Assembly: GCA_963667035.1 (NCBI GenBank)
Contig: OY762964.1
Coordinates: 992,001-1,056,000, forward strand
Length of the DNA stretch: 64,000 bases
Direction: 5' to 3'
Source: Candidatus Cloacimonadales bacterium
GTDB taxonomy: Bacteria > Cloacimonadota > Cloacimonadia > Cloacimonadales > JAFGVF01
Shown here: in pieces, positions 1-13,548 of the stretch
Layout of the letters: the number at the start of each line of letters is the position of its first letter
How positions within the stretch are numbered: position 1 is the first letter of the stretch
Notes under the pieces: model-generated
Seen by the model: the letters and a program-made list of their open reading frames with translations, nothing else
The model's database searches: none
What the model was told of the DNA's origin: nothing
Program-made: the position numbers and the translations under genes

Positions 1-71
1 AATTGTAATATGTTGCAATTATGGAGGTTATAGTACTGTTTAGTATGTGTTAAGCTCATCATTAAGTTTAA

Positions 72-89
72 TTGTGAAAATCATCACAG
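72..89. promoter_or_regulatory. Putative Rex-type operator upstream of PFOR
   Basis: TTGTGAAAATCATCACAG matches 12/14 informative positions of TTGTGAAnnnnTTCACAA; lies just upstream of TTGACA at 106-111. Confidence 0.45.
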
Positions 90-200
90 GAAAAGCGGAA
101 AATAATTGACACTTTATTGTTTATAATTTCGCTGTCATAAACGAAAGTTCAGATGATTTTTTGATATAAATAGACAAATAAACTCGAAAAGGAGATGAGA

Positions 201-3200
201 ATGGCACAATTCAAGAAACAGACAATGGAAGGAAACATGGCCGCTGCTCACATCGCTTATGCATTTAGTGAAGTCGCAGCTATTTACCCCATTACTCCAT
301 CTTCAACCATGGGAGAATTAACCGATACTTGGTCTGCCAATGGTTTAAAGAATATCTTCGGCACAGAAGTAGATGTCGCTGAGATGCAATCAGAAGGTGG
401 TGCTGCAGGTGCTGTACACGGTTCATTATCAGCCGGTGCTTTAACAAGCACATTCACTGCTTCTCAAGGACTCATGCTTATGCTTCCTAATATGCATAAG
501 ATTGCCGGTGAGATGCTTCCAACTGTATTCTACGTTTCAGCTCGCTCTTTAGCAGCACAATCTCTTTCTATTTTTGGTGATCACTCTGATGTGATGTCAG
601 CCAGAAATACAGGTTATGCAATGCTTGCATGTAACTCAGTTCAAGAAGTTATGGACCTCTCAATAGTAGCTAACCTTGCTACACTAAAAACAGAGATTCC
701 TTTCTTAGTATTCTTCGATGGTTTCAGAACTTCAAATGAAATCCAGAAAGCAGAAGTTATCGACTATGAAACATTAGGCTCAATGCTTGATATGCAGTAT
801 GTTGAAAGATTCAGAGCAAGAGCTCTTAATCCTGAAAGTCCTCGCGTAAAAGTTGGAGCACAAAATCCTGACGTATATTTCCAGGGTCGTGAAACAACCA
901 ATAATACTTATGATGCAGCTCCTGCCGAAGTTCAAGCTTACATGGATGAAGTTGCCGCTAAGATAGGTCGTAGCTATCATTTATTTGATTACATCGGTGC
1001 TCCTGATGCTGAATCAATAATAGTAGCAATGGGCTCAGGTTGTGAAACAATAGATGAAACAATCGAATATCTTAATGCAAACGGTTCTAAATACGGCTTG
1101 TTAAAAGTTCGTTTATACAGACCATTCTCAATTGATGCTCTCATTAATGCAATTCCTGCTTCAGTTAAGAGAATTGCTGTTCTTGATAGAACAAAAGAAC
1201 CGGGTTCAATCGGTGAACCTTTATATATTGATGTAGTAGCTGCTCTTAAGGGTAAAGATATCACTATCATTGGTGGACGTTACGGTTTATCTTCAAAAGA
1301 GTTTACACCTTCAATGGTTAAAGCTGTTTACAAACATCTTGATAACGATGGTTTCCACGGATTTACAGTAGGTATCACAGACGATGTATCTAACCGTTCA
1401 ATTCCTGTTACAGAAAGGATTAACACAATTCCTAAAGGAACTATCGGTTGTAAATTCTGGGGTCTTGGATCAGACGGTACTGTCGGTGCTAATAAGAATA
1501 GTATCAAGATTATCGGTGACAACACTGACAAATATGCTCAGGGTTATTTCCAGTATGACTCTAAGAAATCCGGTGGTATCACTCGCAGTCACTTAAGATT
1601 CGGTGATACTCCTATCCGTTCACAATATCTTATCCAGAATGCTGACTTCATCGCATGTCATAATCCTGCTTTCATCGGTAGATATGATATCCTTGAAGGA
1701 ATCAAAGAAGGAGGTGTATTCCTTCTTAACTCACATTGGACTCAAGAAGAAATCTTTGCTAATCTTACCGAAGACATGCAGAAGACTATTGTTGAGAAGA
1801 AAGTTAGATTCTATAACATCAATGCACTTGAAATTGCTAAAGGCGTAGGTCTTGGCGGTAGAATCAATACAGTTATGCAAGCTGCTTTCTTTATAATCTC
1901 CGGTGTTCTTGAAAAAGAAAAAGCTATCGAACTTATCAAAAATGCAATCAAGAAATCTTATGCTAAGAAAGGCGAAGAGATTGTTAAGATGAATATCGAA
2001 GCTGTAGATAAAACAGAAGCTGCTCTCGTTGAAATAACAATTCCTGCTAAAATGGATGGTACTTTCGTTGAAATGAAGAAACTCATCCCTGATAATGCTG
2101 ATGAATTCACTAAAACAGTTATCGAGCCAATCATGAGAGAAAAAGGTGACGACATCAAGGTCTCTGAGATGCCTTATGACGGTTTTGTACCTTCTGCTAC
2201 AACTAAACTTGAAAAACGTGGTGTTGCGCCGTTTGTTCCTCATTGGATTCCTGAAAATTGTATCCAATGTAACCAGTGTTCATTCGTATGTCCTCACGCA
2301 GCTATCAGACCTAAATTGATTGCTAATGATGATATGGCAAATGCTCCTGAGGCTTTCAAAACACTCAATGCTATGGGTGATTCGGACCTTCAGTATAAAC
2401 TTCAGGTTTACATTGATGACTGTCAGGGTTGTCGCGTATGTGTTAACGAATGTCCTAAGGGTGCACTTGTAATGAGCCCTATCGATGAAGAAAGAGCTGC
2501 CGGCGAACAAGCTAACTATGAATTCTTCGAAACTCTTCCTGAAGACAAATTTGGTAAGATGAAGAATATCAATGTTAAGACTTCTCAGTTCAAACAACCG
2601 TTGCTTGAGTTCTCTGGTGCTTGTGCAGGTTGCGGTGAAACACCTTATGTAAAACTTCTTACTCAATTGTTTGGAGACAGAATGCTTATTGCAAACGCTA
2701 CAGGTTGTACTTCAATCTGGGGTGGCACATTCCCAACAATTCCTTATTGTAAGAATCAGAACGGTCATGGTCCTTCATGGGCAAACTCACTGTTTGAAGA
2801 TAATGCTGAGTACGGATTTGGTTTCCGCTTAGCTGTTGATTCCAACAGAAAGATTCTCAAGATGAACCTTGAAAAGGCTACAGCCCTTCTCACTTGTGAC
2901 AGTTGTATTGAAGTATTCAACAGAAGACTTGATAATTGGGATTCAGTTGATGATCAAGCTAAAGCTGATGCAGCAAAGATTAAAGAGCTTCTTCCTAAGC
3001 TTCTTGAGAAAGCTGATGACAAAACAGCTCCTATCGTACGTAAGTGTATCGAATTGCAGAACTATCTTGTTGATAAGAGTGTTTGGTGCTTCGGTGGTGA
3101 CGGTTGGGCTTATGACATCGGTTATGGTGGACTTGATCACGTAATGGCTTCTAACAAGAATGTTAATATCCTTGTTGTTGATACAGAAGTTTATTCAAAT

Positions 3201-3713
3201 ACAGGTGGACAGGCTTCTAAATCTACTCCTCTTGGTTCAGTTGCTAAGTTTGCAGAGTCAGGAAAAGCTACGGTTAAGAAAGACCTTGGTATGATGATGA
3301 TGAGCTACGGATATGTTTATGTTGCATCCATTTCTATGGGTTCAAACAAAGCTCAAGCTCTCAAAGCTATCCAAGAAGCTGAAGCTTATCCGGGACCATC
3401 AATCATTCTTGCTTATGCTCCATGTATCAATCACGGTATTGATATGGGTATGAGCCAGAAAGAAGAAAAAGCAGCTGTTGATAGCGGATACTGGATTAAT
3501 TACAGATACAATCCTCAACTCAAAGCTGAAGGTAAGAATCCGTTTGTTATGGATTCAAAAGAACCTACTGCTGACCCTCTTGACTTCATAGACGGTGAAA
3601 AGAGATATACATCACTCAAGAGAACTTTCCCTCAGAAGTTTGAGCAATACCATGCCGAACTTAAGAAGTTCCTCGAAGCAAGATACGAAAGATACAAAAA
3701 AATGGCCGAATAA
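201..3713 (+). CDS. nifJ: Pyruvate:ferredoxin (flavodoxin) oxidoreductase, single-chain
   Basis: YPITPS, EMQSEGGAAG, CIQCNQC..CP and CQGCRVC..CP ferredoxin motifs, SGACAGCGE, GGDGWAYDIG TPP motif. AAGGAG at 189-194 favours the ATG at 201 over 195. Confidence 0.96.
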   Translation: MAQFKKQTMEGNMAAAHIAYAFSEVAAIYPITPSSTMGELTDTWSANGLKNIFGTEVDVAEMQSEGGAAGAVHGSLSAGALTSTFTASQGLMLMLPNMHKIAGEMLPTVFYVSARSLAAQSLSIFGDHSDVMSARNTGYAMLACNSVQEVMDLSIVANLATLKTEIPFLVFFDGFRTSNEIQKAEVIDYETLGSMLDMQYVERFRARALNPESPRVKVGAQNPDVYFQGRETTNNTYDAAPAEVQAYMDEVAAKIGRSYHLFDYIGAPDAESIIVAMGSGCETIDETIEYLNANGSKYGLLKVRLYRPFSIDALINAIPASVKRIAVLDRTKEPGSIGEPLYIDVVAALKGKDITIIGGRYGLSSKEFTPSMVKAVYKHLDNDGFHGFTVGITDDVSNRSIPVTERINTIPKGTIGCKFWGLGSDGTVGANKNSIKIIGDNTDKYAQGYFQYDSKKSGGITRSHLRFGDTPIRSQYLIQNADFIACHNPAFIGRYDILEGIKEGGVFLLNSHWTQEEIFANLTEDMQKTIVEKKVRFYNINALEIAKGVGLGGRINTVMQAAFFIISGVLEKEKAIELIKNAIKKSYAKKGEEIVKMNIEAVDKTEAALVEITIPAKMDGTFVEMKKLIPDNADEFTKTVIEPIMREKGDDIKVSEMPYDGFVPSATTKLEKRGVAPFVPHWIPENCIQCNQCSFVCPHAAIRPKLIANDDMANAPEAFKTLNAMGDSDLQYKLQVYIDDCQGCRVCVNECPKGALVMSPIDEERAAGEQANYEFFETLPEDKFGKMKNINVKTSQFKQPLLEFSGACAGCGETPYVKLLTQLFGDRMLIANATGCTSIWGGTFPTIPYCKNQNGHGPSWANSLFEDNAEYGFGFRLAVDSNRKILKMNLEKATALLTCDSCIEVFNRRLDNWDSVDDQAKADAAKIKELLPKLLEKADDKTAPIVRKCIELQNYLVDKSVWCFGGDGWAYDIGYGGLDHVMASNKNVNILVVDTEVYSNTGGQASKSTPLGSVAKFAESGKATVKKDLGMMMMSYGYVYVASISMGSNKAQALKAIQEAEAYPGPSIILAYAPCINHGIDMGMSQKEEKAAVDSGYWINYRYNPQLKAEGKNPFVMDSKEPTADPLDFIDGEKRYTSLKRTFPQKFEQYHAELKKFLEARYERYKKMAE

Positions 3714-3729
3714 GTCATTAAGATATATT

Positions 3730-3762
3730 AAGGGAAGGTTGATAATCAGCCTTCCCTTTTTT
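3730..3762 (+). terminator. Rho-independent terminator after PFOR
   Basis: AAGGGAAGGTTGA-taa-TCAGCCTTCCCTT hairpin followed by a T tract. Confidence 0.85.
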
Positions 3763-3886
3763 ACATACTCAAATTCTTCTTATACTTTTAGAAATATCGC
3801 TTGACGTCTATTGTACATATTAATCATTTATAGTAACGTTTACCTTTAACGATGATTCTACTAATCGTAGCAATGAGGAGTATACT

Positions 3887-4450
3887 ATGAAACAGAGATG
3901 CCAATGGTGCGAATCTAATCCCATAAACATAAAATATCATGATGAAGAGTGGGGAACTCCTGTACACGATGATAGATTACTTTTTGAATTCTTGATTTTG
4001 GAAGGTGCTCAAGCAGGACTTAGTTGGACTACAATTCTCAAGAAAAGAGAAAACTACCGTAAAGCATTCGATAATTTCGACTTTAATAAAATAGCTCTCT
4101 ACACAGATGATGATAAAGAGAGATTACTTGCAAATGAAGGGATTGTCAGAAACAGAAGAAAGATTGATTCAACGATTAGGAATGCTGCAGTCGCTATTGA
4201 TATTATCAAAGAATTCGGTTCTCTTGATAAGTATTTCTGGAATTATGTCGATGGAAAGCCAATTATAAACTCCCGGAAATCATTATCGGAAATCCCTGCC
4301 AAAACCGAACTGGCAGAGAAGATGAGCAAGGATCTTAAGAAAAGAGGCATGAACTTTGTAGGTCCCACGATTTGCTATGCCTTTATGCAGGCGATAGGAA
4401 TAGTAAATGACCACACTGTAGATTGTTATAGATATAAGGAATTGAGCTAA
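3887..4450 (+). CDS. tag: DNA-3-methyladenine glycosylase I
   Basis: RCxW, YHDEEWG, LILEGAQAGLSW, FVGPTICYAFMQAIG..NDH..C motifs; GAGGAG RBS. Confidence 0.95.
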   Translation: MKQRCQWCESNPINIKYHDEEWGTPVHDDRLLFEFLILEGAQAGLSWTTILKKRENYRKAFDNFDFNKIALYTDDDKERLLANEGIVRNRRKIDSTIRNAAVAIDIIKEFGSLDKYFWNYVDGKPIINSRKSLSEIPAKTELAEKMSKDLKKRGMNFVGPTICYAFMQAIGIVNDHTVDCYRYKELS

Positions 4451-4559
4451 GGCATTTCTTCTTAACATAATTATGTAATTTATCCGGATAGTTGTGTTAT
4501 TTTATGCAGGGAATACTAAGTTAATTTGTATATAATGTAGAAACAGGTATGGAGGAATT

Positions 4560-5024
4560 ATGAAAAGAATTCTATTGTCACTTATGGGTTTGATATTGTT
4601 GTTTTCATTAACAGCAACGGAACCGACTTTGACAACTCCGGCTCCCAAGGATAAGAAGACACCTCGTGAACCTAAAGCTTTGGAAGCTCCTGAGGTCTCG
4701 AAAGCTGTGCTTGATAGAACTGATAATCAGATGAAGGTCTATACTGAAGAGTTAGATCTGACACCAGAGCAAGTTACAGTAATCAGAGAGATTATTCTTG
4801 AAAGAAACCGCATTATCCAACAGCATAAAAACGTTGGAAATGATGATTTTGAGAAGAACAGAATAGCCCGAAGTAAAATCAGTACTGCTAACCGGAAAGC
4901 CGATGAGAGAATTATCAAGCATTTGAATGAAGAGCAGGTGGTTAAATTTAAACATCTACAGAAACGTACATTGGAGAATAGAAAGAAACCGATGAAAAGT
5001 CAAAAAAAACCTTCAAAATTCTAA
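4560..5024 (+). CDS. Secreted hypothetical protein, Spy/CpxP (LTxxQ)-like
   Basis: Signal peptide MKRILLSLMGLILLFSLTA; LDLTPEQ and LNEEQ motifs; basic helical sequence; GGAGG RBS. Confidence 0.6.
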   Translation: MKRILLSLMGLILLFSLTATEPTLTTPAPKDKKTPREPKALEAPEVSKAVLDRTDNQMKVYTEELDLTPEQVTVIREIILERNRIIQQHKNVGNDDFEKNRIARSKISTANRKADERIIKHLNEEQVVKFKHLQKRTLENRKKPMKSQKKPSKF

Positions 5025-5078
5025 AGTAGGTTTGAATTGACTTAAACTAAGTTCATCAGGAAATCCAATATAAATCTC

Positions 5079-5124
5079 AAAGCAGAAAGCGATGTTTATT
5101 AAAACAAGCTTTCTGCTTTCTTTT
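5079..5124 (+). terminator. Rho-independent terminator
   Basis: AAAGCAGAAAGC...GCTTTCTGCTTT 12-bp inverted repeat followed by CTTTT. Confidence 0.7.
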
Positions 5125-5262
5125 GTTAATATAGTTTATACAGTTCCGGGGACTATATGATTTGATCTCAAATCCATAGCAATATGAATCTACAGTGGCA
5201 TTTATCAGTGTCTAGATGATTTCAGTTCATTTACTGTCCTCCTTTTCTGCTTATTCTACCAA

Positions 5263-5356
5263 CCCGCTGTTTTTGCACTGTGCAGGCAGTGCTATCGCAC
5301 TGCCCACGCACTGAAACACCGGGTTGACAGTGCATTCACAGTGCAAAAACAGTGGG
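5263..5356. repeat. 11-bp-periodic CASTG palindromic element
   Basis: CACTG/CAGTG-like cores at 5265,5276,5287,5298,5309 and 5317,5328,5339,5350; outer inverted repeat 5263-5282/5337-5356 (19/20). Confidence 0.8.
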
Positions 5357-5540
5357 AAACATCCGCTTTGTTGAAGAGTTTACAGAATGTTTGATGTTTG
5401 AAAAAAGAAATTGTAAATTTTATGGGAATTCAGGATATGGAAATATATAAAAAACTATTTTGTCTAATTAATCATTGAGAAAAAAGTGATTGACATAAAC
5501 AATCCGTTAATACTAACTATCAATCAAAATGGAGGATTTT

Positions 5541-5792
5541 ATGGCAAGGGAAACTAAAGTATACAAGTTTAAATGTCCTGATTGTGACCACGAAATAGAA
5601 TTCAAGATAGAGATTAAAACTTCCTCGGAGGGTAAAACTACTAAAGAAGTAGTTGTGTATTGCCCTTTTTGTGATAAAAAATATGTAGCAGAGATACCTG
5701 CGAAACCGGCTAGTAATGCAACTGTTTTAAGATCATATGAAAATGGAGATAAGGATGAAATGGGTCAAGATACCTCTGATTTTAGAATCTGA
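5541..5792 (+). CDS. Small zinc-ribbon protein (CxxC...CxxC)
   Basis: CPDC and CPFC pairs; GGAGG at 5531-5535 supports the ATG at 5541; overlaps the next gene. Confidence 0.75.
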   Translation: MARETKVYKFKCPDCDHEIEFKIEIKTSSEGKTTKEVVVYCPFCDKKYVAEIPAKPASNATVLRSYENGDKDEMGQDTSDFRI

Positions 5793-8700
5793 ACAGGAGA
5801 CGGAATTAGAAAAGCTTTGGGATAATATTGTTCGGTATCATTCCAATTCACTAACAATTGAGCCGAAGAATACATCTATTGAAAGAATGTTTACGATTAT
5901 GAGCGAAGTAGCAAAAGCTAATCCACAAATTCAAGTTGCTATTAATCAATCGGAGAACGGGAGTGAGCATATAGTTCTAAACTTACAGCATGATAACAGA
6001 ACTATTCTTAACCTTCCGTGGCATGGATTAAAGGATTGCACCGGAAAATCACTTTCATCACTAAGTCAACTTACCTGTGTACGCTCATTTCCAGAATGCT
6101 TTAGTGACCTGAAATTTAAACCTCGAGCACTACCTATGAAGGTTCTTGTTGTAGTATCGTCACCGGATGATTTGACATTTGAAGGTAGATTGGATTATGA
6201 AACTGAGATGAGTAATATACTCACCATTTTCTATCCCTTGATGAAAAGGGGGGAGATAATAGTTGATATCGCAGATGATGCTTCTCTAATAGGAATCGAA
6301 AAGAAAATAATTCAAGTTAAATACGATATACTTCATTTCTCCGGTCATGGTTCATTCAACAAAGATACAGGAGAGGGTCATATTCTGTTGGAAAATGAAG
6401 ATGATATGAATATGAATTTTGTAAACGCAAAGGAGTTTGCTGAAGTCTTGAATAGTCATCCTGAGCATAGGATACCTCTCGTTGTAATGTCCTCATGCCA
6501 TACTGCTCATAGTGACAGTAGTTTTAAAGGTGTTACCGATCAACTGATACGTGTTGGCACTCCTGCCGTTATCTCTATGGTTATGTCTGTCGGTGATGAT
6601 TACGCAACTGAGTTCTCTAACAAGTTTTACGAGAATATCTGTAACAGATATACGATCCCACAGAGCTATCGAAAAGCTGTTGAAGCACTAAGAGTCTACG
6701 AATATGATAGGCATAGTGCAAAAAAAACATCTCACATACCTACTCAATGGATGATTCCCAGTCTGACAGTATCAGAAGAGATTGAAAAGCTCACAGATTT
6801 TGATTTGGTTAATGAGATAAGAGATTATGAATCTCAAGATGTATTTTCAGGAAAGAGATATATAAGTAAGCCTGATAAAGAATACTTGTTTATTGGCAGA
6901 TGGAGAGATGTAAAAAGATACTTTGGAGAGCTTAAATCAAAGGGATTTGTACTGATAACGGGACAGGGTGGAATAGGTAAAACTTATCTGGCAGAAGAAC
7001 TTATCCGAAGATATTGTTTGAAACAACTTGAGGCAATTGTATTTGCCTTTGATGAGAAGAATTTGAGTGGTGTTAATATATTGGATAAAGGTATATCCTA
7101 TCTGAAGGATGATGGAGATTTTGATTTTCTAAAGACCTATAAAGATGTGAAGTCTATTGAAGATAAGTTTTTGTTTCTTTTTAACCTGATTGCTAAACAG
7201 GGAAAGTATCCGATTTTTGTTTTTGATAACTTAGAGTCTTTTATGGATGATGATTGCCGAACCTTTAAACCGGAGCATAGCGAAATAGTAAATCTAATCA
7301 CTTTATTACAAAGAATTGAAAAATTTCCTCTTATCATGACTTCCCGATATGCTTTTGAAACGGAATATTATGACATAAATCAGCATGTGGATTTAAAATC
7401 GGTTTCTTTTACCGATTATTGGAGGAAAGCAAAAGATACGAAAAACATTATCTCAGAACTTGGAGACACAAGAGAGGATTTCAAAGATAATCTGTTTTTG
7501 TTATACAATAAACTGGGAGGGAACTATAGAGCACTAGAATTTATTGATACTTTGCTATCTACTGTTAAGTCTGACGACTTAATGAAAGCAATTGAATCCG
7601 TTCAAGATAAAATGGTTGAGAATCTGTTGTTTAATAAGATAATTGAATTATTGGATGATAGTTTGTATATATTCCGGTTTCTTATGCACTTTGATGTGCC
7701 TGTTACTACATTAGCTTTGGAGTTACAAGGATTAGTAAAAGAGAAGATTGAAACTGCTCTCAAACGAATTAATTCATTAACTCTTTGCGAAAGAATGAAA
7801 CAAGATGAAACGGATTTATATTACATCACTCCGCTTATAAAAGACTTATACAAAAAGAACTACCTTAACGAAGATATTATTTTTTCTCATGAAATGGCAG
7901 GGAGATATTTTACTTATAGAATCAACAATGGTTTTGATTCAGGAATGACGAGTCTGATAAATGCTTTTGAACATTTTTGCCTTTCCGATAATAAAAAGCA
8001 AATCAATGATTTAGGGAATAGAATAAGCTTCATTTTTGAGGAAAAATTCATGTTTGAGATGGCTCATTATTATGCTGATAAAAGTTATAGTATACTTGGT
8101 GATGAATGCAATGTCTATTTAATCCATAGATTAGGCTTTATTGAACTAAACATTGGGAGATATGATAATGCTTTAACTCATTTCAATAAGTGCTTGAAGA
8201 TATTTGAGGAAATAGGCGATAAATCTGGAGAAGGAACTTGTCTCAACAATATAGGTCAGATTTACGCTTCACGAGGAGATTATGATACAGCTTTATCTTA
8301 TCTCGAGCATAGTTTGAAGATAAGACAAGAGATAGGCGATAAATCGGGAGAAGGACAATGTCTTAACAATATAAGCCAGATTTACGCTTCACGAGGAGAT
8401 TATGATACAGCTTTATCTTATCTCGAGCATAGTTTGAAGATAAGACAAGAGATAGGCGATAAATCGGGAGAAGGACAATGTCTCAACAATATAAGCCAGA
8501 TTTACGATTCACGAGGAGATTATGATACAGCTTTATCTTATCTCGAGCGTAGTTTGAAGATAAGACAAGATATAGGCGATAAATCTGGAGAAGGAACTTG
8601 TCTCAACAATATAAGCCAGATTTACGATTCACGAGGAGATTATGATACAGCTTTATCTTATCTCGAGCGTAGTTTGAAGATAAGACAAGATATAGGCGAT

Positions 8701-9015
8701 AAATCCGGAGAAGGACAATGTCTCAACAATATAAGCCAGATTTACGCTTCACGAAGAGATTATGATACCGCTTTATCTTATCTTGAGCGTAGTTTGAAGA
8801 TATTTGAGGAGATAGGAGATAAATCGGGTGAAGGATACACATTATACAATTTAGCTTTTATGCTACTAATCAATTTGAATGAACCAGAAAAGGGAATGAA
8901 ATGCTTAATTGAAGCACTTAAAATCAATCAAAAAGTTGGAGATGCCGAGTTGGGAAAGCATTTATCGGAATTGTTTACATGGAAGAAACAGCAAATGGAG
9001 GAACAAGATGCCTGA
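5755..9015 (+). CDS. CHAT (caspase-like) protease - STAND/NB-ARC-like ATPase - TPR protein
   Basis: CHAT dyad LHFSGHG and VVMSSCHT; FIGR motif, Walker A GQGGIGKT, Walker B IFVFDNLE, sensor-like MTSR; C-terminal 40-aa TPR repeats. Start at 5737, 5743 or 5755 (GGAG at 5745 favours 5755). Confidence 0.88.
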   Translation: MKWVKIPLILESEQETELEKLWDNIVRYHSNSLTIEPKNTSIERMFTIMSEVAKANPQIQVAINQSENGSEHIVLNLQHDNRTILNLPWHGLKDCTGKSLSSLSQLTCVRSFPECFSDLKFKPRALPMKVLVVVSSPDDLTFEGRLDYETEMSNILTIFYPLMKRGEIIVDIADDASLIGIEKKIIQVKYDILHFSGHGSFNKDTGEGHILLENEDDMNMNFVNAKEFAEVLNSHPEHRIPLVVMSSCHTAHSDSSFKGVTDQLIRVGTPAVISMVMSVGDDYATEFSNKFYENICNRYTIPQSYRKAVEALRVYEYDRHSAKKTSHIPTQWMIPSLTVSEEIEKLTDFDLVNEIRDYESQDVFSGKRYISKPDKEYLFIGRWRDVKRYFGELKSKGFVLITGQGGIGKTYLAEELIRRYCLKQLEAIVFAFDEKNLSGVNILDKGISYLKDDGDFDFLKTYKDVKSIEDKFLFLFNLIAKQGKYPIFVFDNLESFMDDDCRTFKPEHSEIVNLITLLQRIEKFPLIMTSRYAFETEYYDINQHVDLKSVSFTDYWRKAKDTKNIISELGDTREDFKDNLFLLYNKLGGNYRALEFIDTLLSTVKSDDLMKAIESVQDKMVENLLFNKIIELLDDSLYIFRFLMHFDVPVTTLALELQGLVKEKIETALKRINSLTLCERMKQDETDLYYITPLIKDLYKKNYLNEDIIFSHEMAGRYFTYRINNGFDSGMTSLINAFEHFCLSDNKKQINDLGNRISFIFEEKFMFEMAHYYADKSYSILGDECNVYLIHRLGFIELNIGRYDNALTHFNKCLKIFEEIGDKSGEGTCLNNIGQIYASRGDYDTALSYLEHSLKIRQEIGDKSGEGQCLNNISQIYASRGDYDTALSYLEHSLKIRQEIGDKSGEGQCLNNISQIYDSRGDYDTALSYLERSLKIRQDIGDKSGEGTCLNNISQIYDSRGDYDTALSYLERSLKIRQDIGDKSGEGQCLNNISQIYASRRDYDTALSYLERSLKIFEEIGDKSGEGYTLYNLAFMLLINLNEPEKGMKCLIEALKINQKVGDAELGKHLSELFTWKKQQMEEQDA
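8194..8835 (+). repeat. Intragenic tandem array of about 5.3 near-identical 120-bp TPR units
   Basis: Units at 8221, 8341, 8461, 8581 and 8701 differ by only a few nucleotides. Confidence 0.95.
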
Positions 9016-9409
9016 TGAATCATTGAAAGTTAAACCAATCTCACAAGAAACAACACAATGGCAAGAGTTCATGATAAAAGAGCAACAGGAAACTCCTCAT
9101 AGGCTTGAAACGGTAGGGAAGTCATTGTCAGGGATGATATCTGTTACATTATCTATTATATTGGTATTTAGTGCAAATATCCTTAAAACTAATACAATTC
9201 CTGTATATGTACTAGTAATTTGGATTATAGCTTTATTTCTATCATTTCTGGTTATATTTCCATTCCCATACAGGTATAACACACAGAGTCCTCAAACATA
9301 TAAAGAAGCTCATAAACGTATAACAGTAGTCAAGTATACGATACTGATATTAAGCGTGATTGCATATCTGATAGCTGTATCATGGCTAGCGATAGAGCTA
9401 TTCGGATAG
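9008..9409 (+). CDS. Three-TM membrane protein, unknown function
   Basis: GGAGGA RBS at 8997-9002; ATG at 9008 overlaps the upstream stop (9013-9015); three hydrophobic segments. Confidence 0.8.
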   Translation: MPDESLKVKPISQETTQWQEFMIKEQQETPHRLETVGKSLSGMISVTLSIILVFSANILKTNTIPVYVLVIWIIALFLSFLVIFPFPYRYNTQSPQTYKEAHKRITVVKYTILILSVIAYLIAVSWLAIELFG

Positions 9410-9612
9410 TATAGAAGTCTATTCACAGATGTGAATTGCCTTATTACGTAGTTAATGGTAAAACTTCAAAATACAATAATTCCAATTCATACATAATCAT
9501 TCTTATCTTGACGTATATATTACCTTTCTGAATATCAAACATTATGATGTCATAAAGTTGTATAGTAGTATATAAAGATTATCATATTTAAAATAAAGAG
9601 AATAGAGGAGGT

Positions 9613-12330
9613 ATGATGAAGAAAACCCTGAATCTTTTTTTGTTATTAATCATTAGCGTTTCATCTATGTGGGCTTACATGACCAGATATGAAACGGTCC
9701 TGACTCAACCTGACGGTAGTAAGTTTAGTGCTGTTATTGAAGGTGACGAATACTTTCGAGTTGTGTCGGATAAGGATAACTATACCCTGATGGTAGACCC
9801 TAAGACAGGATACTGGATGTATGCGGTTAAAGGAAACAACGGTTTAGAACCGGGAATGTACAGACAGGGAACTGTCAATCCTGCGTCAATAGGCTTGGAC
9901 CCCGGATTAACATATTCTTCCGGCCAGATTAATAAAAGAGTGGAGGAGATGAAAGAGTTATTCTCCGCTAATAGCATAAATAGAACTCCCAATACGGGAA
10001 CATTCAATAACCTTGTTGTGTTTATTCGTTTCGCAGGTGAGAGTGAATTCGGACAGAACATTAGTACTTATACAAATATGATTAGCGATACAACACCCGG
10101 AGCTAACTCCATGGTGAACTACTTTGAAGAAGTGTCCTATAATCAATTAACCATAGACTCTCATTACTATCCACCGACATCAAACAACATGGTTGTTTCT
10201 TATCAGGATAGCTATGCAAGAAACTACTTTCAACCGTACAGTGGTTCTAATCCAAGCGGATACAGCGGAGATGACGAGAGAAAAGATAGAGAATTTGCTT
10301 TATTGGATAGAGCAATAGACTATGTAGATGCCTATATCCCTTCATCATTGAATATTGATGCTGATAATGACGGTTATGTTGATAATGTAGTATTCATAGT
10401 GAAAGGTGATACCGACGGTTGGTCTGATTTACTATGGCCTCATCGTTGGGTTCTTTATGATAGAAACGTGTATCTGAACGGTGATAGAGTTTGGGATTTC
10501 AATTTCCAGTTGCAATCGCATCTTGTCAGTAGCGGAACAGGCGTTATGTGTCATGAAATGTTCCATTCATTAGGTGCACCCGATTTATATCATTATAACT
10601 ATGACGGTTTGACGACTGCCGGAGAATGGGATGTTATGGAGAATTCTACCAATCCTCCTCAACACATGCTAATGTACATGAAATACAGATATGGATTGTG
10701 GCTAAACAGTATACCTGAGATAACTTCAAGCGGGACATACTCGTTAAACCCGACAACTAACAATACAAACAATTGCTATAAAATAGCTTCGAATGATCCT
10801 GACGAGTACTTTGTTATTGAGTATAGAAGAATGACCGGAACCTTTGAATCAAGTCTACCCGGAGAAGGGTTAATAGCTTATAGAATAAACACGACTCTTG
10901 ATGGAGAAGGAAATGCAGACGGACCACCGGACGAGCTTTATGTGTATAGACCGGGAGGTAGCCTCACTCAAAGCGGTAGCATTAGTCAGGCAGTATTTAA
11001 TCCTGCTTACGGAAGAACCGAGTTAACAGATTATACAGACCCTAATGGATTTCTTTCCGATGGTTCATTAGGTGGGCTGTTCGTTACGAATATCGGTACT
11101 GCAGGAACAACAATCTCTTTTACAGTTAATATTGGAGGTGCAGGTGATCCTGATATTGCTGTGACTCCTTCATCTTATTCGATTAGCTTACCCCCTGAGA
11201 CAACAGCAAACAGAAGTTTGAGAATAAGTAACAATGGCACAGCTCCTTTAAACTATTCCCTTAACTTACAGAATGTAACAAGAGATACAGGTGGTCCCAC
11301 TGCAAGCGGATACTATTGGATTGATAGTTCTGAAGCAAATGGTCCTGATTATATATGGGAAGATATCTCTTCTGTTGGAACCGAGATTAATTATAACTCT
11401 GATGATCAGCTATCCGCTTCGCTTAACCTAGGTTTCACATTCCCGTTTTACGATAACAACTATACTTCTCTTGCCGTATGTAGTAATGGTTTCTTGAGTT
11501 TTTCAGGTTCGGATACGCAATGGGATAATATGGATATTCCCAATAGTATTACACCAAACAACTTCATTGCACCTTTCTGGGATGATTTAAGTCCTCAAAA
11601 CAGTGGCTCCGTTTACTATTACAGCGATGTGGCTAATCAACGCTTTATTGTGCAATTCACTGATGCACCTCACTATAGTACTGTTAGCGGTACTTATACT
11701 TTCCAAGTTCAGTTGTATTCTACCGGTGAGATATACTATTATTACAATAATATGCGAAATACTATAAATAGTGCTACAATAGGTATTGAGAACAATGACG
11801 GTTCGGAAGGATTAAAAATAGCTTATAATGAGAACTATGTTTCTAACGGTAAAGCAGTATTAATAAACAATGTTAACTTTATACAGGATGATGTTGATTG
11901 GGCGGATGCAACACCTATGAACGGAACGGTTAATCCTGGTGCTTATACCGACGTTGCTTTAAATATTGATACAACAGGATTGATTGCGAATAATGATTAT
12001 ACAGCTAATGTAGTTGTTAATTCCAATGATAATGACCTGCCGTCTATCAGTATCCCATTATATTTATCGGTAATCGGGGCACTTGATGCTCCTGAAAATG
12101 CTACTGCTTCTGTAGTTAACGGAAGATTAGAGATAAAGTGGACTCCTGTAACGGGTGCAAGTTCTTATAATATCTATATGCAGAATCCAAGTAACGGGAT
12201 TTACTATAATAGAAACAGTTACGGGACATTCGGCACATCCGGAAGTTATATTACTTGGACAACTACTTTTGAATTGGATAGTTTATCATGGCCAAGAGCT
12301 TTCTTTTATATTAAAGCTGTTGCAGAATAA
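9613..12330 (+). CDS. Secreted M6-family (immune inhibitor A-like) metalloprotease
   Basis: Signal peptide; QPDG...GDEY propeptide; HEMFHSLGAPDLY zinc motif; WDVM Met-turn; IAPFWDDL domain; C-terminal beta-sandwich. Confidence 0.88.
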   Translation: MMKKTLNLFLLLIISVSSMWAYMTRYETVLTQPDGSKFSAVIEGDEYFRVVSDKDNYTLMVDPKTGYWMYAVKGNNGLEPGMYRQGTVNPASIGLDPGLTYSSGQINKRVEEMKELFSANSINRTPNTGTFNNLVVFIRFAGESEFGQNISTYTNMISDTTPGANSMVNYFEEVSYNQLTIDSHYYPPTSNNMVVSYQDSYARNYFQPYSGSNPSGYSGDDERKDREFALLDRAIDYVDAYIPSSLNIDADNDGYVDNVVFIVKGDTDGWSDLLWPHRWVLYDRNVYLNGDRVWDFNFQLQSHLVSSGTGVMCHEMFHSLGAPDLYHYNYDGLTTAGEWDVMENSTNPPQHMLMYMKYRYGLWLNSIPEITSSGTYSLNPTTNNTNNCYKIASNDPDEYFVIEYRRMTGTFESSLPGEGLIAYRINTTLDGEGNADGPPDELYVYRPGGSLTQSGSISQAVFNPAYGRTELTDYTDPNGFLSDGSLGGLFVTNIGTAGTTISFTVNIGGAGDPDIAVTPSSYSISLPPETTANRSLRISNNGTAPLNYSLNLQNVTRDTGGPTASGYYWIDSSEANGPDYIWEDISSVGTEINYNSDDQLSASLNLGFTFPFYDNNYTSLAVCSNGFLSFSGSDTQWDNMDIPNSITPNNFIAPFWDDLSPQNSGSVYYYSDVANQRFIVQFTDAPHYSTVSGTYTFQVQLYSTGEIYYYYNNMRNTINSATIGIENNDGSEGLKIAYNENYVSNGKAVLINNVNFIQDDVDWADATPMNGTVNPGAYTDVALNIDTTGLIANNDYTANVVVNSNDNDLPSISIPLYLSVIGALDAPENATASVVNGRLEIKWTPVTGASSYNIYMQNPSNGIYYNRNSYGTFGTSGSYITWTTTFELDSLSWPRAFFYIKAVAE

Positions 12331-12353
12331 TTAATCGTATATAAAACAATAAA

Positions 12354-12390
12354 AGATAAGCTTTCGCAATGCGGAAGCTTATCTGCTTTT
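12354..12390 (+). terminator. Rho-independent terminator
   Basis: AGATAAGCTTTCGC-aat-GCGGAAGCTTATCT hairpin followed by GCTTTT. Confidence 0.75.
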
Positions 12391-12482
12391 ACAACTAGTA
12401 TCAATGACCGGACCAAATAGTTAGCAATCACAAAGAATAAATTGATTGACAATTTAGCTTATTCTCATAATTTCACATTAAA

Positions 12483-12514
12483 CCTTTAATCGAGTCCAGA
12501 GAGGCTGAAAGGAG
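12483..12514 (+). promoter_or_regulatory. PyrR-binding loop (pyr mRNA leader)
   Basis: CCTTTAA..AGTCCAGAGAGGCT..AAAGG matches the ARUCCNGNGAGGYU PyrR consensus, directly upstream of pyrB. Confidence 0.88.
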
Positions 12515-12520
12515 ATAAAT

Positions 12521-12625
12521 ATGAAACTAACTTTAATAATGCTAAATAAGCATAAATCCCCCAATTCTTTAAACACCATTACTATACCCAATCATTTAAG
12601 GAGTATTTCATGCAAAGCAATTTAA
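12521..12625 (+). CDS. Putative 34-aa leader ORF overlapping the pyrB start
   Basis: AAAGGAG 6 nt upstream of the ATG; open frame MKLTLIMLNKHKSPNSLNTITIPNHLRSISCKAI*. Confidence 0.4.
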   Translation: MKLTLIMLNKHKSPNSLNTITIPNHLRSISCKAI

Positions 12626-13548
12626 ACTTCCTGGGACGATGTATGTATGATCTCGATGACTATTCGGCAGAAGAGATTATTCATATTCTTGAAGCATCCA
12701 AGATTATGAAGGAAATCAATCAGAGGGAATACAAGAAAGTTCCAACTCTGAGAGGTAAAACTGTTTGTACTCTATTCTTTGAAAACAGTACAAGAACACT
12801 TATGTCTTTTGAGCTTGCTGCCAGTCGTTTAAGTGCTGATTTAGTCAGTTTCAATTCAAGTACTTCATCTTTAGCAAAAGGTGAAAGCTTACAAGACACT
12901 GTTTATACTCTTGATGCAATGGGTATTGACTGCTATATAATTCGTCACAGTTATCCCGGAAGTCCGCAGTTAGTGCATAAATACTCACAGAAACCTGTAT
13001 TAAACGGGGGAGACGGACGTCATGCTCACCCGACTCAAGCATTGCTTGATATGTTCTCAATATATGAGAAGAGAGGCTCTCTGGATGGTATGAAGATTGC
13101 TATTGTAGGTGATATTGCTCACAGTAGAGTTGTTCGTTCTAATCTTATCGGAATGAAGAAGCTTGGAGCTGAAGTTACTATTTGCGGTCCAAGAACTCTT
13201 ATGCCTGGTAAAATGGAAGAAGTTTACGGATGTAAAGTAAGCTATAATCTTGAAGAAGCACTCAAGGATGCTGATGTTGTTATGGGACTTAGAATGCAAC
13301 TTGAAAGACAAGCTGAAGGTTTATTCCCTAATCTTGAAGAGTATACAAAGCACTATGTACTTTCAAAAGAGACTTTGAAATTTGCCAAGAAAGACGCTTT
13401 AATAATGCACCCAGGTCCAATGAATAGAGGTGTTGAAATTTTACCTGAAATAGCAGACAGTGATCGTTCATTAGTGTTACAACAAGTTGCCAATGGTGTT
13501 GCCGTGAGAATGGCATTGTTGTATCTCATGCTCGGTGGAAAGATGTAG
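12610..13548 (+). CDS. pyrB: Aspartate carbamoyltransferase catalytic subunit
   Basis: FFENSTRT, HPTQALLD, MHPGPMNRG motifs. Confidence 0.96.
   Translation: MQSNLNFLGRCMYDLDDYSAEEIIHILEASKIMKEINQREYKKVPTLRGKTVCTLFFENSTRTLMSFELAASRLSADLVSFNSSTSSLAKGESLQDTVYTLDAMGIDCYIIRHSYPGSPQLVHKYSQKPVLNGGDGRHAHPTQALLDMFSIYEKRGSLDGMKIAIVGDIAHSRVVRSNLIGMKKLGAEVTICGPRTLMPGKMEEVYGCKVSYNLEEALKDADVVMGLRMQLERQAEGLFPNLEEYTKHYVLSKETLKFAKKDALIMHPGPMNRGVEILPEIADSDRSLVLQQVANGVAVRMALLYLMLGGKM

Follow-up and report, generated by a model that had tools for sequence, protein, structure and literature searches.

We analysed a stretch of 64,000 nucleotides (nt) from Candidatus Cloacimonadales bacterium (GenBank assembly GCA_963667035.1, contig OY762964.1, positions 992,001 to 1,056,000), referred to here in its full length as the window, and focused on three overlapping genes at positions 5541 to 9409. 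The first of these encodes a small zinc-ribbon protein (Zn-ribbon), the second a large protein in which a CHAT protease domain, a STAND NTPase core and an array of tetratricopeptide repeats (TPRs) follow one another, and the third a small protein with three transmembrane (TM) segments (3-TM protein). The features of this trio, numbered from the first letter of the window, are as follows.

5541..5792, + strand: Zn-ribbon partner gene, 83 amino acids (aa); the open reading frame (ORF) could also begin at 5529
5721-5735, + strand: tail motif TVLRS of the Zn-ribbon, residues 61-65; R64 is the proposed P1 residue
5755..9015, + strand: CHAT-nSTAND3-TPR gene, 1086 aa; the mechanical ORF begins at 5737 (1092 aa)
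5950..6693, + strand: CHAT protease domain (PF12770, 88.5 bits, cut-off 24)
6346-6348 and 6496-6498, + strand: catalytic residues His198 and Cys248 of the CHAT domain, in HFSGHG (194-199) and SSCHT (246-250)
6925..7347, + strand: STAND NTPase core (PF20720 nSTAND3, 30.0 bits, a marginal match at a cut-off of 27.2)
6961-6984, + strand: Walker A GQGGIGKT, residues 403-410 (sequence motif)
7216-7236, + strand: Walker B FVFDNLE, residues 488-494 (sequence motif)
8044..8946, + strand: putative TPR sensor array (TPR_12, 190.8 bits; TPR_10 and related Pfam matches)
8212-8835, + strand: 120-bp tandem DNA repeat in the TPR array, 5.2 copies, 93% matches, without indels (Tandem Repeats Finder)
9008..9409, + strand: 3-TM partner gene, 133 aa

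The start of the large gene at 5755 agrees with the N-termini of eight homologues and with a database entry of 1086 aa. The Zn-ribbon and CHAT genes overlap by 38 nt and the CHAT and 3-TM genes by 8 nt (ATGCCTGA), and a Shine-Dalgarno-like GGAGG or GGAG lies 5-6 nt 5' of all three starts (GGAGG at 5 nt for the Zn-ribbon and at 6 nt for the 3-TM protein). An earlier note, made from the letters of this DNA, had described three overlapping genes between unrelated neighbours, namely a CHAT-STAND-TPR protein with a catalytic dyad, Walker A and B motifs and TPRs, an upstream 83-aa CxxC-CxxC protein whose low-structure tail contains TVLRS, and a downstream 133-aa 3-TM protein. This description held throughout: the ORFs are as described and the neighbours are unrelated housekeeping genes; Pfam CHAT, nSTAND3 and TPR_12 matches accompany the motifs of the large protein; the Zn-ribbon has its Cys pairs at C12/C15 and C41/C44, and residues 56-77 of its AlphaFold2 (AF2) model have a predicted local distance difference test score (pLDDT) below 50; and the 3-TM protein has three hydrophobic peaks and a three-helix AF2 model.

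Eight full-length homologues of the large protein are 29-34% identical to it by BLASTP (28-41% in their alignment), and H198 and C248 are unchanged in 9/9 aligned homologues. We counted the residues of the large protein in a hidden Markov model (HMM) alignment of 79 rows, from 67 loci and the window, over the rows covering each column. The catalytic His and the catalytic Cys are each kept in 65/66 rows, E213 in 66/66 and D281 in 65/66, the Walker A Lys in 63/63 and the Walker B Asp in 63/64. The acidic D281 lies 33 residues beyond the catalytic Cys, a location that would be compatible with a basic P1 pocket of the paracaspase type. According to precomputed annotation some homologues carry NACHT (PF05729), and the nearest solved sequence relative of the CHAT domain is 8tl0 (E 0.003), the chain of which is titled 'CHAT domain-containing protein'. 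The 93% likeness of the 120-bp repeats in the TPR array suggests recent expansion or homogenisation of units in the sensor, and such near-identical DNA repeats are as would be expected for a fast-evolving sensor.

The AF2 model of the Zn-ribbon contains strands at residues 3-11, 18-26, 35-41 and 46-52. All members of a 34-sequence alignment have C41 and C44 and nearly all have C12, and the first knuckle is CxxC, CxC or C...H. The Zn-ribbon reached no Pfam, NCBIfam or PADLOC family (generic zinc-ribbon Pfam matches were all sub-threshold), a language-model search with it returned no cluster with a common family, and a word-index search gave no homologue, which is due to the sensitivity limit of that search and not to orphan status. 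The disordered tail carries a consensus [TS]-φ-φ-[RK]-G (φ, hydrophobic) 19-22 residues past the last Cys, and in the alignment the position of R64 is the best conserved of the tail, which lends indirect support to the suggestion of the earlier note that a cut may fall at LR|S. The column of R64 holds Arg in 28/34 members and Lys in 5/34; P2 is Leu, Ile or Phe in 29/34, P3 is Val, Ile or Leu in 27/34, P4 is Thr or Ser in 20/34, and P1' is Gly in 20/34, followed by a hydrophobic residue and then K-K. Because the filter for the seeds of the Zn-ribbon HMM had admitted the tail pattern as one alternative, we repeated the search with an HMM ending before the tail. The strict φ-φ-[RK] motif was present in 44/53 matches to this tail-free HMM, and eight of the nine non-strict matches, judged by eye, have Arg or Lys at a comparable tail position, which brings the total to 52/53; the sole match without a basic tail residue is that of locus L047.

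The 3-TM protein has hydrophobic peaks at about residues 40-60, 63-88 and 110-132 and a loop (88-109) of net charge +4. Its AF2 model (mean pLDDT 85.9) comprises helices 13-55, 64-83 and 95-132, and the N-terminus is predicted to lie inside and the C-terminus outside. In the alignment of the family W18, E34, W72, P85 and Y88 are invariant, and the best-conserved parts are, first, the cytoplasmic N-terminal helix (W18, then P-x-R-L-E-[DE]-A-A-K-[FY]-L entering TM1) and, second, the end of TM2 with the loop that follows (F-P-x-x-Y-R-Y ... S-x-x-S-I ... K). A HMMER search of 1.84 billion cluster representatives gave 487 members at E<=1e-3, 182 at 1e-10 and 80 at 1e-30, nearly all of them stand-alone proteins of 130-160 aa; among the 14 longer members scanned, one has a DUF6265 extension and the others are uninformative. 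The 3-TM protein has no family in Pfam, NCBIfam or PADLOC, and the single homologue found by the word-index search again reflects its sensitivity limit. No PDB structure matched the fold of the model at E<=0.001; NINJ1 (9bia), which ranked first, has an E of 0.55 and a TM-score of 0.40-0.47 and is not meaningful. The R-V-V-R-x-K that many members have in the TM2-TM3 loop was weighed as a possible further cleavage site and rejected, as the protein of the window is without that Arg.

We collected loci through the large protein alone, using the alignment of eight homologues against one genome per prokaryotic species. The scan gave 190 pattern matches, 134 of which encode a relative, and the best 80 of these 134 were kept and resolved into 62 distinct loci. 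By record title, Bacteroidota (mostly Saprospiraceae) make up the large majority, followed by Aminicenantes (7), Nitrospirota (5, including one magnetotactic metagenome-assembled genome (MAG)), Calditrichia (3), anammox Planctomycetota (2), Melioribacteraceae (1) and an unlabelled bacterium (1). The small ORFs adjoining the large-protein genes sort into two clear families, for which we counted partners by running HMMs, with seeds drawn from these same loci, over all six-frame ORFs; the seed sequences themselves match by construction. A Zn-ribbon is present in 45/62 loci (45/54 of those with at least 300 nt of upstream flank) and a 3-TM protein in 30/62 (29/37 of those with at least 600 nt of downstream flank). 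The earlier note had set, as a check, that the partners should stay with CHAT-STAND-TPR genes across phyla, which they do: both partners are present in 28 of the 34 loci for which both flanks are available; three have the Zn-ribbon only (L019, L047 and L066), none the 3-TM protein only, and three neither partner (L021, L025 and L072). Further, every partner gene shares the strand of the large gene, and the order Zn-CHAT-TM of most loci is replaced by Zn-TM-CHAT in L018 and L035, by CHAT-Zn-TM in L038, L053 and L056 and by TM-Zn-CHAT in L086, L087 and L114. The existence of four gene orders indicates that the linkage is functional and independent of position, and the small ORFs recur next to the large gene's relatives at dozens of loci from several phyla, which is far beyond chance.

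The catalytic dyad and the partners appear to go together. The two rows with a dead dyad are those of L025 (Cys to Ala) and L072 (His to Gln), each of which is without either partner, and at the third locus without both partners, L021, the reading frame is split. A dead dyad thus occurs in 2/3 partner-less loci and in 0/31 others, a pattern that is unlikely by chance if kinship is ignored, with the caveat that the numbers are small and the loci related. Since the dead-dyad copies have no partners, we regard this as a strong hint, at the level of sequence, that the partners would matter solely where the CHAT protease is active. We note that, at L025, a 331-aa ORF (L025:3968-4963) stops 35 nt 5' of the Cys-to-Ala paralogue (L025:4998-8339); its N-terminus (…HMSDLHIGD…) presumably resembles a calcineurin-type phosphoesterase motif.

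In the reverse direction, metagenome contigs were searched with a narrow 3-TM alignment alone, which gave 14 loci. A CHAT-STAND gene is on the contig in 5/14 (L080, L083, L086, L087 and L089), and in 3/14 (L082, L085 and L091) a TPR-ending ORF, truncated at the contig edge, lies directly upstream; L084 and L090 are not judgeable, and L088 is a 3-TM gene alone. L078, on a 1.5-kb contig, has a Zn-ribbon gene, a 440-nt insert (L078:500-950) and then the 3-TM gene; by eye, the frame of this insert may resemble a small toxin-antitoxin-type gene. The remaining two loci, L079 and L081, are tight Zn-TM pairs, to which we return below. In L079 (L079:765-4277) the pair is followed by a 369-aa ATPase_2 (PF01637, 1.7e-39) and preceded by a divergent AAA_15/AAA_21 ATPase, and L079 may be a variant in which a different ATPase stands in for the CHAT-STAND-TPR protein.

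The pairwise distances of the three proteins across 29 loci are correlated (Mantel r of 0.78 for CHAT-STAND and Zn-ribbon, 0.67 for CHAT-STAND and 3-TM, and 0.72 for Zn-ribbon and 3-TM), and 0/2000 permutations reached the observed values. Host phylogeny contributes to these correlations, which therefore show that the three genes are inherited together as a module but need not reflect physical co-evolution. Overall, we conclude that the three genes form a genuine module, conserved across several phyla and apparently without a name, with two new partner families.

We next consider how the module is distributed. This complete 3.1-Mb genome has one copy of the gene for the large protein; CHAT-STAND was not found in the 40 nearest relatives searched, among which we saw one unrelated weak match (E 7.6e-4), and the 3-TM family occurs in 1/232 genomes of the phylum, which is this genome. 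The distribution is sporadic and accessory, and the module looks horizontally acquired. Five other trio-bearing genomes each have one 3-TM-family gene, that of the trio. Some genomes have more CHAT-STAND genes than 3-TM genes, an imbalance the reading of which is limited by MAG fragmentation: G638, the genome of L021, has at least four close CHAT-STAND paralogues and a single 3-TM gene, on a CHAT-less contig identical to L081; G637, the genome of L018, has two close paralogues and one 3-TM gene; and G639, the genome of L020, has three CHAT-STAND-TPR paralogues and one 3-TM gene (a weak match, E 3.5e-7). No relative of the large protein or of the 3-TM protein was found in viral contigs. The 139 flank ORFs of 26 loci with 5-kb flanks were scanned with PADLOC models, and a strong neighbour was present within 5 kb at 5/26 loci, a count that lacks a matched control and is suggestive only. 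The five loci and their neighbours are as follows.

L015, within 5 kb: PtuB (1.7e-69) and a type IIG restriction-modification protein (1.1e-90)
L018, within 5 kb: AbiLi-like ATPase (8.6e-16)
L040, within 5 kb: PDC-M72A (6.8e-82)
L051, within 5 kb: mad3 (7.2e-39)
L066, within 5 kb: SspH (2e-67)

The locus of the window is itself not in a defence island.

The reading that we favour, tentatively and at a little less than even confidence, is that the trio is an NLR-like abortive-infection module in which the CHAT protease would clip the tail of the Zn-ribbon after its Arg and so license the membrane protein. On the model of Avs and other NLR-like proteins, the variable TPR array would bind a ligand derived from the invader, and binding would lead to NTP-dependent oligomerisation of the STAND core. 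Oligomerisation would then bring the N-terminal CHAT domains together and render them active by proximity, as SAVED-CHAT and related systems suggest. The active protease would cut the disordered tail after the conserved Arg or Lys (R64, TVLR|S in the window), a proposal that draws on the presence of the motif in a disordered tail, on its basic P1 and on the Arg specificity of other caspase-like proteases that operate in bacterial immunity (bioRxiv 10.1101/2024.10.24.620036). As a precedent, the small partner PCi both inhibits a caspase-like protease and is cut by it (bioRxiv 10.1101/2023.06.23.546230). Gene linkage suggests that the Zn-ribbon may be the hub between protease and membrane protein, because it occurs with the protease without the 3-TM protein (three loci) and with the 3-TM protein without the protease (two loci), and the 3-TM protein and the protease alone were never seen together. 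Clipping of the tail would change the way the Zn-ribbon holds the 3-TM protein, whether through release of an inhibitor or through a new C-terminus that activates, and the 3-TM protein, by analogy with TM effectors and in view of its linkage, could damage or depolarise the inner membrane and abort the infection. A three-gene, NLR-like module of the suicide or dormancy type is the best reading of the locus. The fuller version, in which an unnamed immune system of many phyla has CHAT trim 3-19 residues off a Zn-ribbon adaptor to license a 3-TM killer and one cassette may serve several sensors, seems to us doubtful when taken as a whole.

Several observations weigh against this reading. First, the trio of the window is flanked by housekeeping genes and lies outside any defence island, the defence neighbours elsewhere were counted without a matched control, and PADLOC has no model for this system. 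Second, the AF2 model of the Zn-ribbon is of low confidence (mean pLDDT 63.2), and only 3-19 residues lie beyond the conserved Arg, so that a cut there would take away very little. Third, CHAT proteases with mapped sites, such as Craspase (on Csx30) and the Runella gasdermin protease, are reported to cut after Leu or Met and not after Arg. Fourth, the Zn-TM pairs L079 and L081 are without CHAT-STAND on contigs of 5.8 and 9.1 kb, and both retain the tail motif (SIFRS and KIFRG), which implies that the motif may serve something other than CHAT cleavage; the genome of L081, however, carries at least four close CHAT-STAND paralogues elsewhere, on separate contigs. The tail motif would also be compatible with a docking peptide that the TPR array or the TM protein binds.

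These points bear differently on the alternatives. One possibility, which we judge unlikely, is that the CHAT protease is itself the executioner, promiscuous and Arg-specific like the type IV Thoeris caspase or PCaspase, with the Zn-ribbon as a pseudo-substrate inhibitor or antitoxin and the 3-TM protein as an anchor or membrane sensor; that the φφR-G tail would fill the active site until activation is to us similarly unlikely. A basic-P1 motif in a disordered tail would suit this arrangement, as would the occurrence of Zn-ribbon-only loci (3/34) in the absence of TM-only loci (0/34) and the loss of partners from dead-dyad copies, and there are precedents in PCi, a small partner that is at once inhibitor and substrate of a caspase-like protease (bioRxiv 10.1101/2023.06.23.546230), and in promiscuous Arg-specific caspases (bioRxiv 10.1101/2024.10.24.620036). 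However, the 3-TM protein is about as conserved as the Zn-ribbon, and best in its cytoplasmic helix and loop, which exceeds the needs of an anchor, and Zn-TM pairs exist without an adjacent protease.

The same pairs lend themselves to another explanation, in which the Zn-ribbon and the 3-TM protein form a self-contained effector cassette and the tail is a docking peptide, for the cytoplasmic face of the TM protein or for the TPRs, instead of a cleavage site. We consider this quite unlikely, and the same applies to its extension, in which CHAT-STAND-TPR proteins act upstream as sensors that can replace one another and several of them can feed a single cassette in trans. It would account for L079, where ATPase_2 follows the pair, and L081, where the pair stands alone, both with the motif, and for the single 3-TM gene set against at least four CHAT-STAND paralogues in G638 and two in G637; moreover, TPR domains commonly bind short C-terminal peptides. 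Against it, the dyad is kept in 64/66 rows and both exceptions are partner-less, which ties the partners to proteolysis, and adjacent genes may be hidden by MAG fragmentation.

Less probable again, and at best a slim prospect, is that the module is not antiviral and serves regulated-proteolysis signalling or programmed death during stress, development or conflict between kin, a role put forward for many NTPase-caspase systems in bacteria of complex morphology. In favour of this, Saprospiraceae, Aminicenantes, magnetotactic Nitrospirota and anammox bacteria are the groups in which the family occurs most often, related systems have been linked to a multicellular habit (Kaur et al. 2020, PMC7159879), no relative was found in viral contigs, and the locus of the window is without defence neighbours. 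Opposed to this are the sporadic and apparently horizontal distribution, the defence neighbours at some loci and the homogenised and variable repeats of the sensor. Finally, the idea that the two partners are spurious small ORFs, or genes with no relation to an ordinary CHAT-TPR protein next to them, as the word-index search with no homologue of the Zn-ribbon and one of the 3-TM protein might have suggested, is hardly credible and already refuted by the HMMs, which place both partners in dozens of loci across phyla, adjacent and on the same strand, by the 487 cluster representatives of the 3-TM family and by the SD-like motifs at all three starts.

Upstream of the trio are genes for PFOR and a Tag glycosylase and a 154-aa ORF without a Pfam match, and downstream are an M6-like peptidase gene and pyrB/pyrC-like genes. 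These flanks are non-syntenic even within the genus: PFOR, Tag and the M6-like peptidase are hundreds of kb apart in the same-genus genome G001, which indicates that the region at 1-13000 of the window has been rearranged within the genus. No flanking direct repeats were found around the operon and synteny gave no insertion boundaries, and in a scan for promoters and terminators the counts were not above those of shuffles (26 vs 20.8 expected and 3 vs 2.0, respectively). In the 500-nt gap 5' of the operon we note a hairpin (5253-5358, arms 5263-5291 and 5328-5356) that belongs to a dispersed palindromic repeat of about 100-140 nt. The repeat recurs in at least 34 further places in this genome at 69-87% identity (40/59 candidates scored) and in about 40 places in G001, with none among the matches listed for four same-family genomes. 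It could be a repetitive extragenic palindromic (REP)- or miniature inverted-repeat transposable element (MITE)-like element; Rfam mir-33-type matches at this position are weak (27 bits, cut-off 50) and merely reflect the hairpin.

NLR-fused caspase-like proteases are common in bacteria, and targets are known for very few of them. The module described here supplies, in a compact 3.9-kb operon, a conserved candidate substrate, a protein of about 70 aa with a candidate site at one-residue resolution, and a candidate executioner from an unannotated family. If the favoured reading is true, it would place an adaptor, as a third protein, between protease and membrane effector, would bring in small membrane effectors of a new family (487 cluster representatives at 50% identity) and would allow tests of the way in which NLR-like sensors of bacteria are coupled to cell death, possibly with many sensors to one effector. 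Should one cassette serve several sensors in trans in genomes with many sensor paralogues, bacteria would have an equivalent of the sensor/helper NLR networks known from plants.

The earlier note did not recognise the trio as a named system, and no described system matched it in PADLOC, Pfam, NCBIfam or the literature searched. The PADLOC hits at E<=0.01 were confined to a generic TPR model and to weak matches with PDC-S39, mad8 and SAVED_CHAT. Full-text searches, which did not extend to bioRxiv supplements, returned no account of a CHAT-STAND-TPR gene with these two partners, and neither do the available parts of PMC7159879, PMC8195603, PMC13581612 and PMC13069673 contain one. The last but one of these, a Nature 2026 survey, mentions neither CHAT nor zinc in its main text, so far as that is available, nor CHAT, caspase or Peptidase_C14 in the accessible content of seven of its supplements. 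With Avs and other NLR-like STAND proteins the trio shares an N-terminal effector, a STAND NTPase with intact Walker A and B motifs, a C-terminal repeat sensor and a sporadic, accessory distribution. However, it matches no curated PADLOC Avs model, and its effector is a CHAT protease with two dedicated small partners, an arrangement that we found described for no Avs family.

The likeness to Pycsar TM effectors raised by the earlier note was not confirmed. Like PycTM, the 3-TM protein is a small membrane module made of helices, the last of which is preceded by a cytoplasmic loop, and the signals are weak: profile-profile comparison (hhalign) with 16 PF18967 regions gave a probability of 12.4% over 35 columns, which does not support homology, and, among ten other 3-TM members, one matched PF18967 (E 0.34, 11.8 bits, cut-off 27.2) and one the PADLOC PycTM model (E 0.002). 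In the language-model search with the 3-TM protein the top cluster has PycTM on 11% of its members, which is a lead only. The 3-TM protein of the window has no PycTM match in Pfam or PADLOC, and there is no pyrimidine cyclase among the neighbours of the trio. As a separate observation, PF18967 is above its cut-off in 166/401 sampled Bacteroidota genomes, far commoner than expected for a domain confined to Pycsar effectors; these matches (L093-L112 among them) are mostly C-terminal in ORFs of about 400 aa, with some in ORFs of about 200 aa.

In bacterial gasdermin operons a caspase-like protease with NLR-like or repeat modules stands beside a membrane-damaging effector, which is activated by the removal of a short C-terminal peptide. 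The trio differs in that its membrane protein is a constitutive 3-TM helical protein of 133 aa and the cleavable-looking tail is on a third protein, and neither the trio nor its neighbours have a Pfam match to a gasdermin family. In EACC1-caspase systems, according to PMC7159879, a small constant partner adjoins an N-terminal caspase-superfamily peptidase with variable modules, including STAND NTPases and repeats, and release of an effector near the membrane by proteolysis has been proposed. The large gene of the trio likewise has an N-terminal caspase-superfamily peptidase and variable C-terminal modules. In contrast, EACC1, as portrayed in that text, is a single-TM protein encoded 5' of the protease, whereas the trio has a soluble Zn-ribbon without a TM segment as its 5' partner and a three-helix protein as its membrane partner; the Pfam matches listed (the 25 most-matched families, and full tables for the two partners of the window and ten further 3-TM members) do not include EACC1.

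The type III CRISPR cascades are the remaining comparison. No CRISPR, SAVED or sigma-factor genes are present in the flanks of the trio (about 9 kb), and Rfam gave nothing CRISPR-like in 4000-10500. The partners in these cascades are unrelated in sequence to those of the trio, and activation here would be by STAND and TPR regions. In the type III-B SAVED-CHAT/PCaspase/PCi cascade and in type III-E Craspase (Csx29-Csx30), a CHAT protease activated by oligomerisation cuts a dedicated small partner and thereby sets off the response (bioRxiv 10.1101/2023.06.23.546230), and this cut is the step that we propose for the CHAT protease and the Zn-ribbon tail in the trio.

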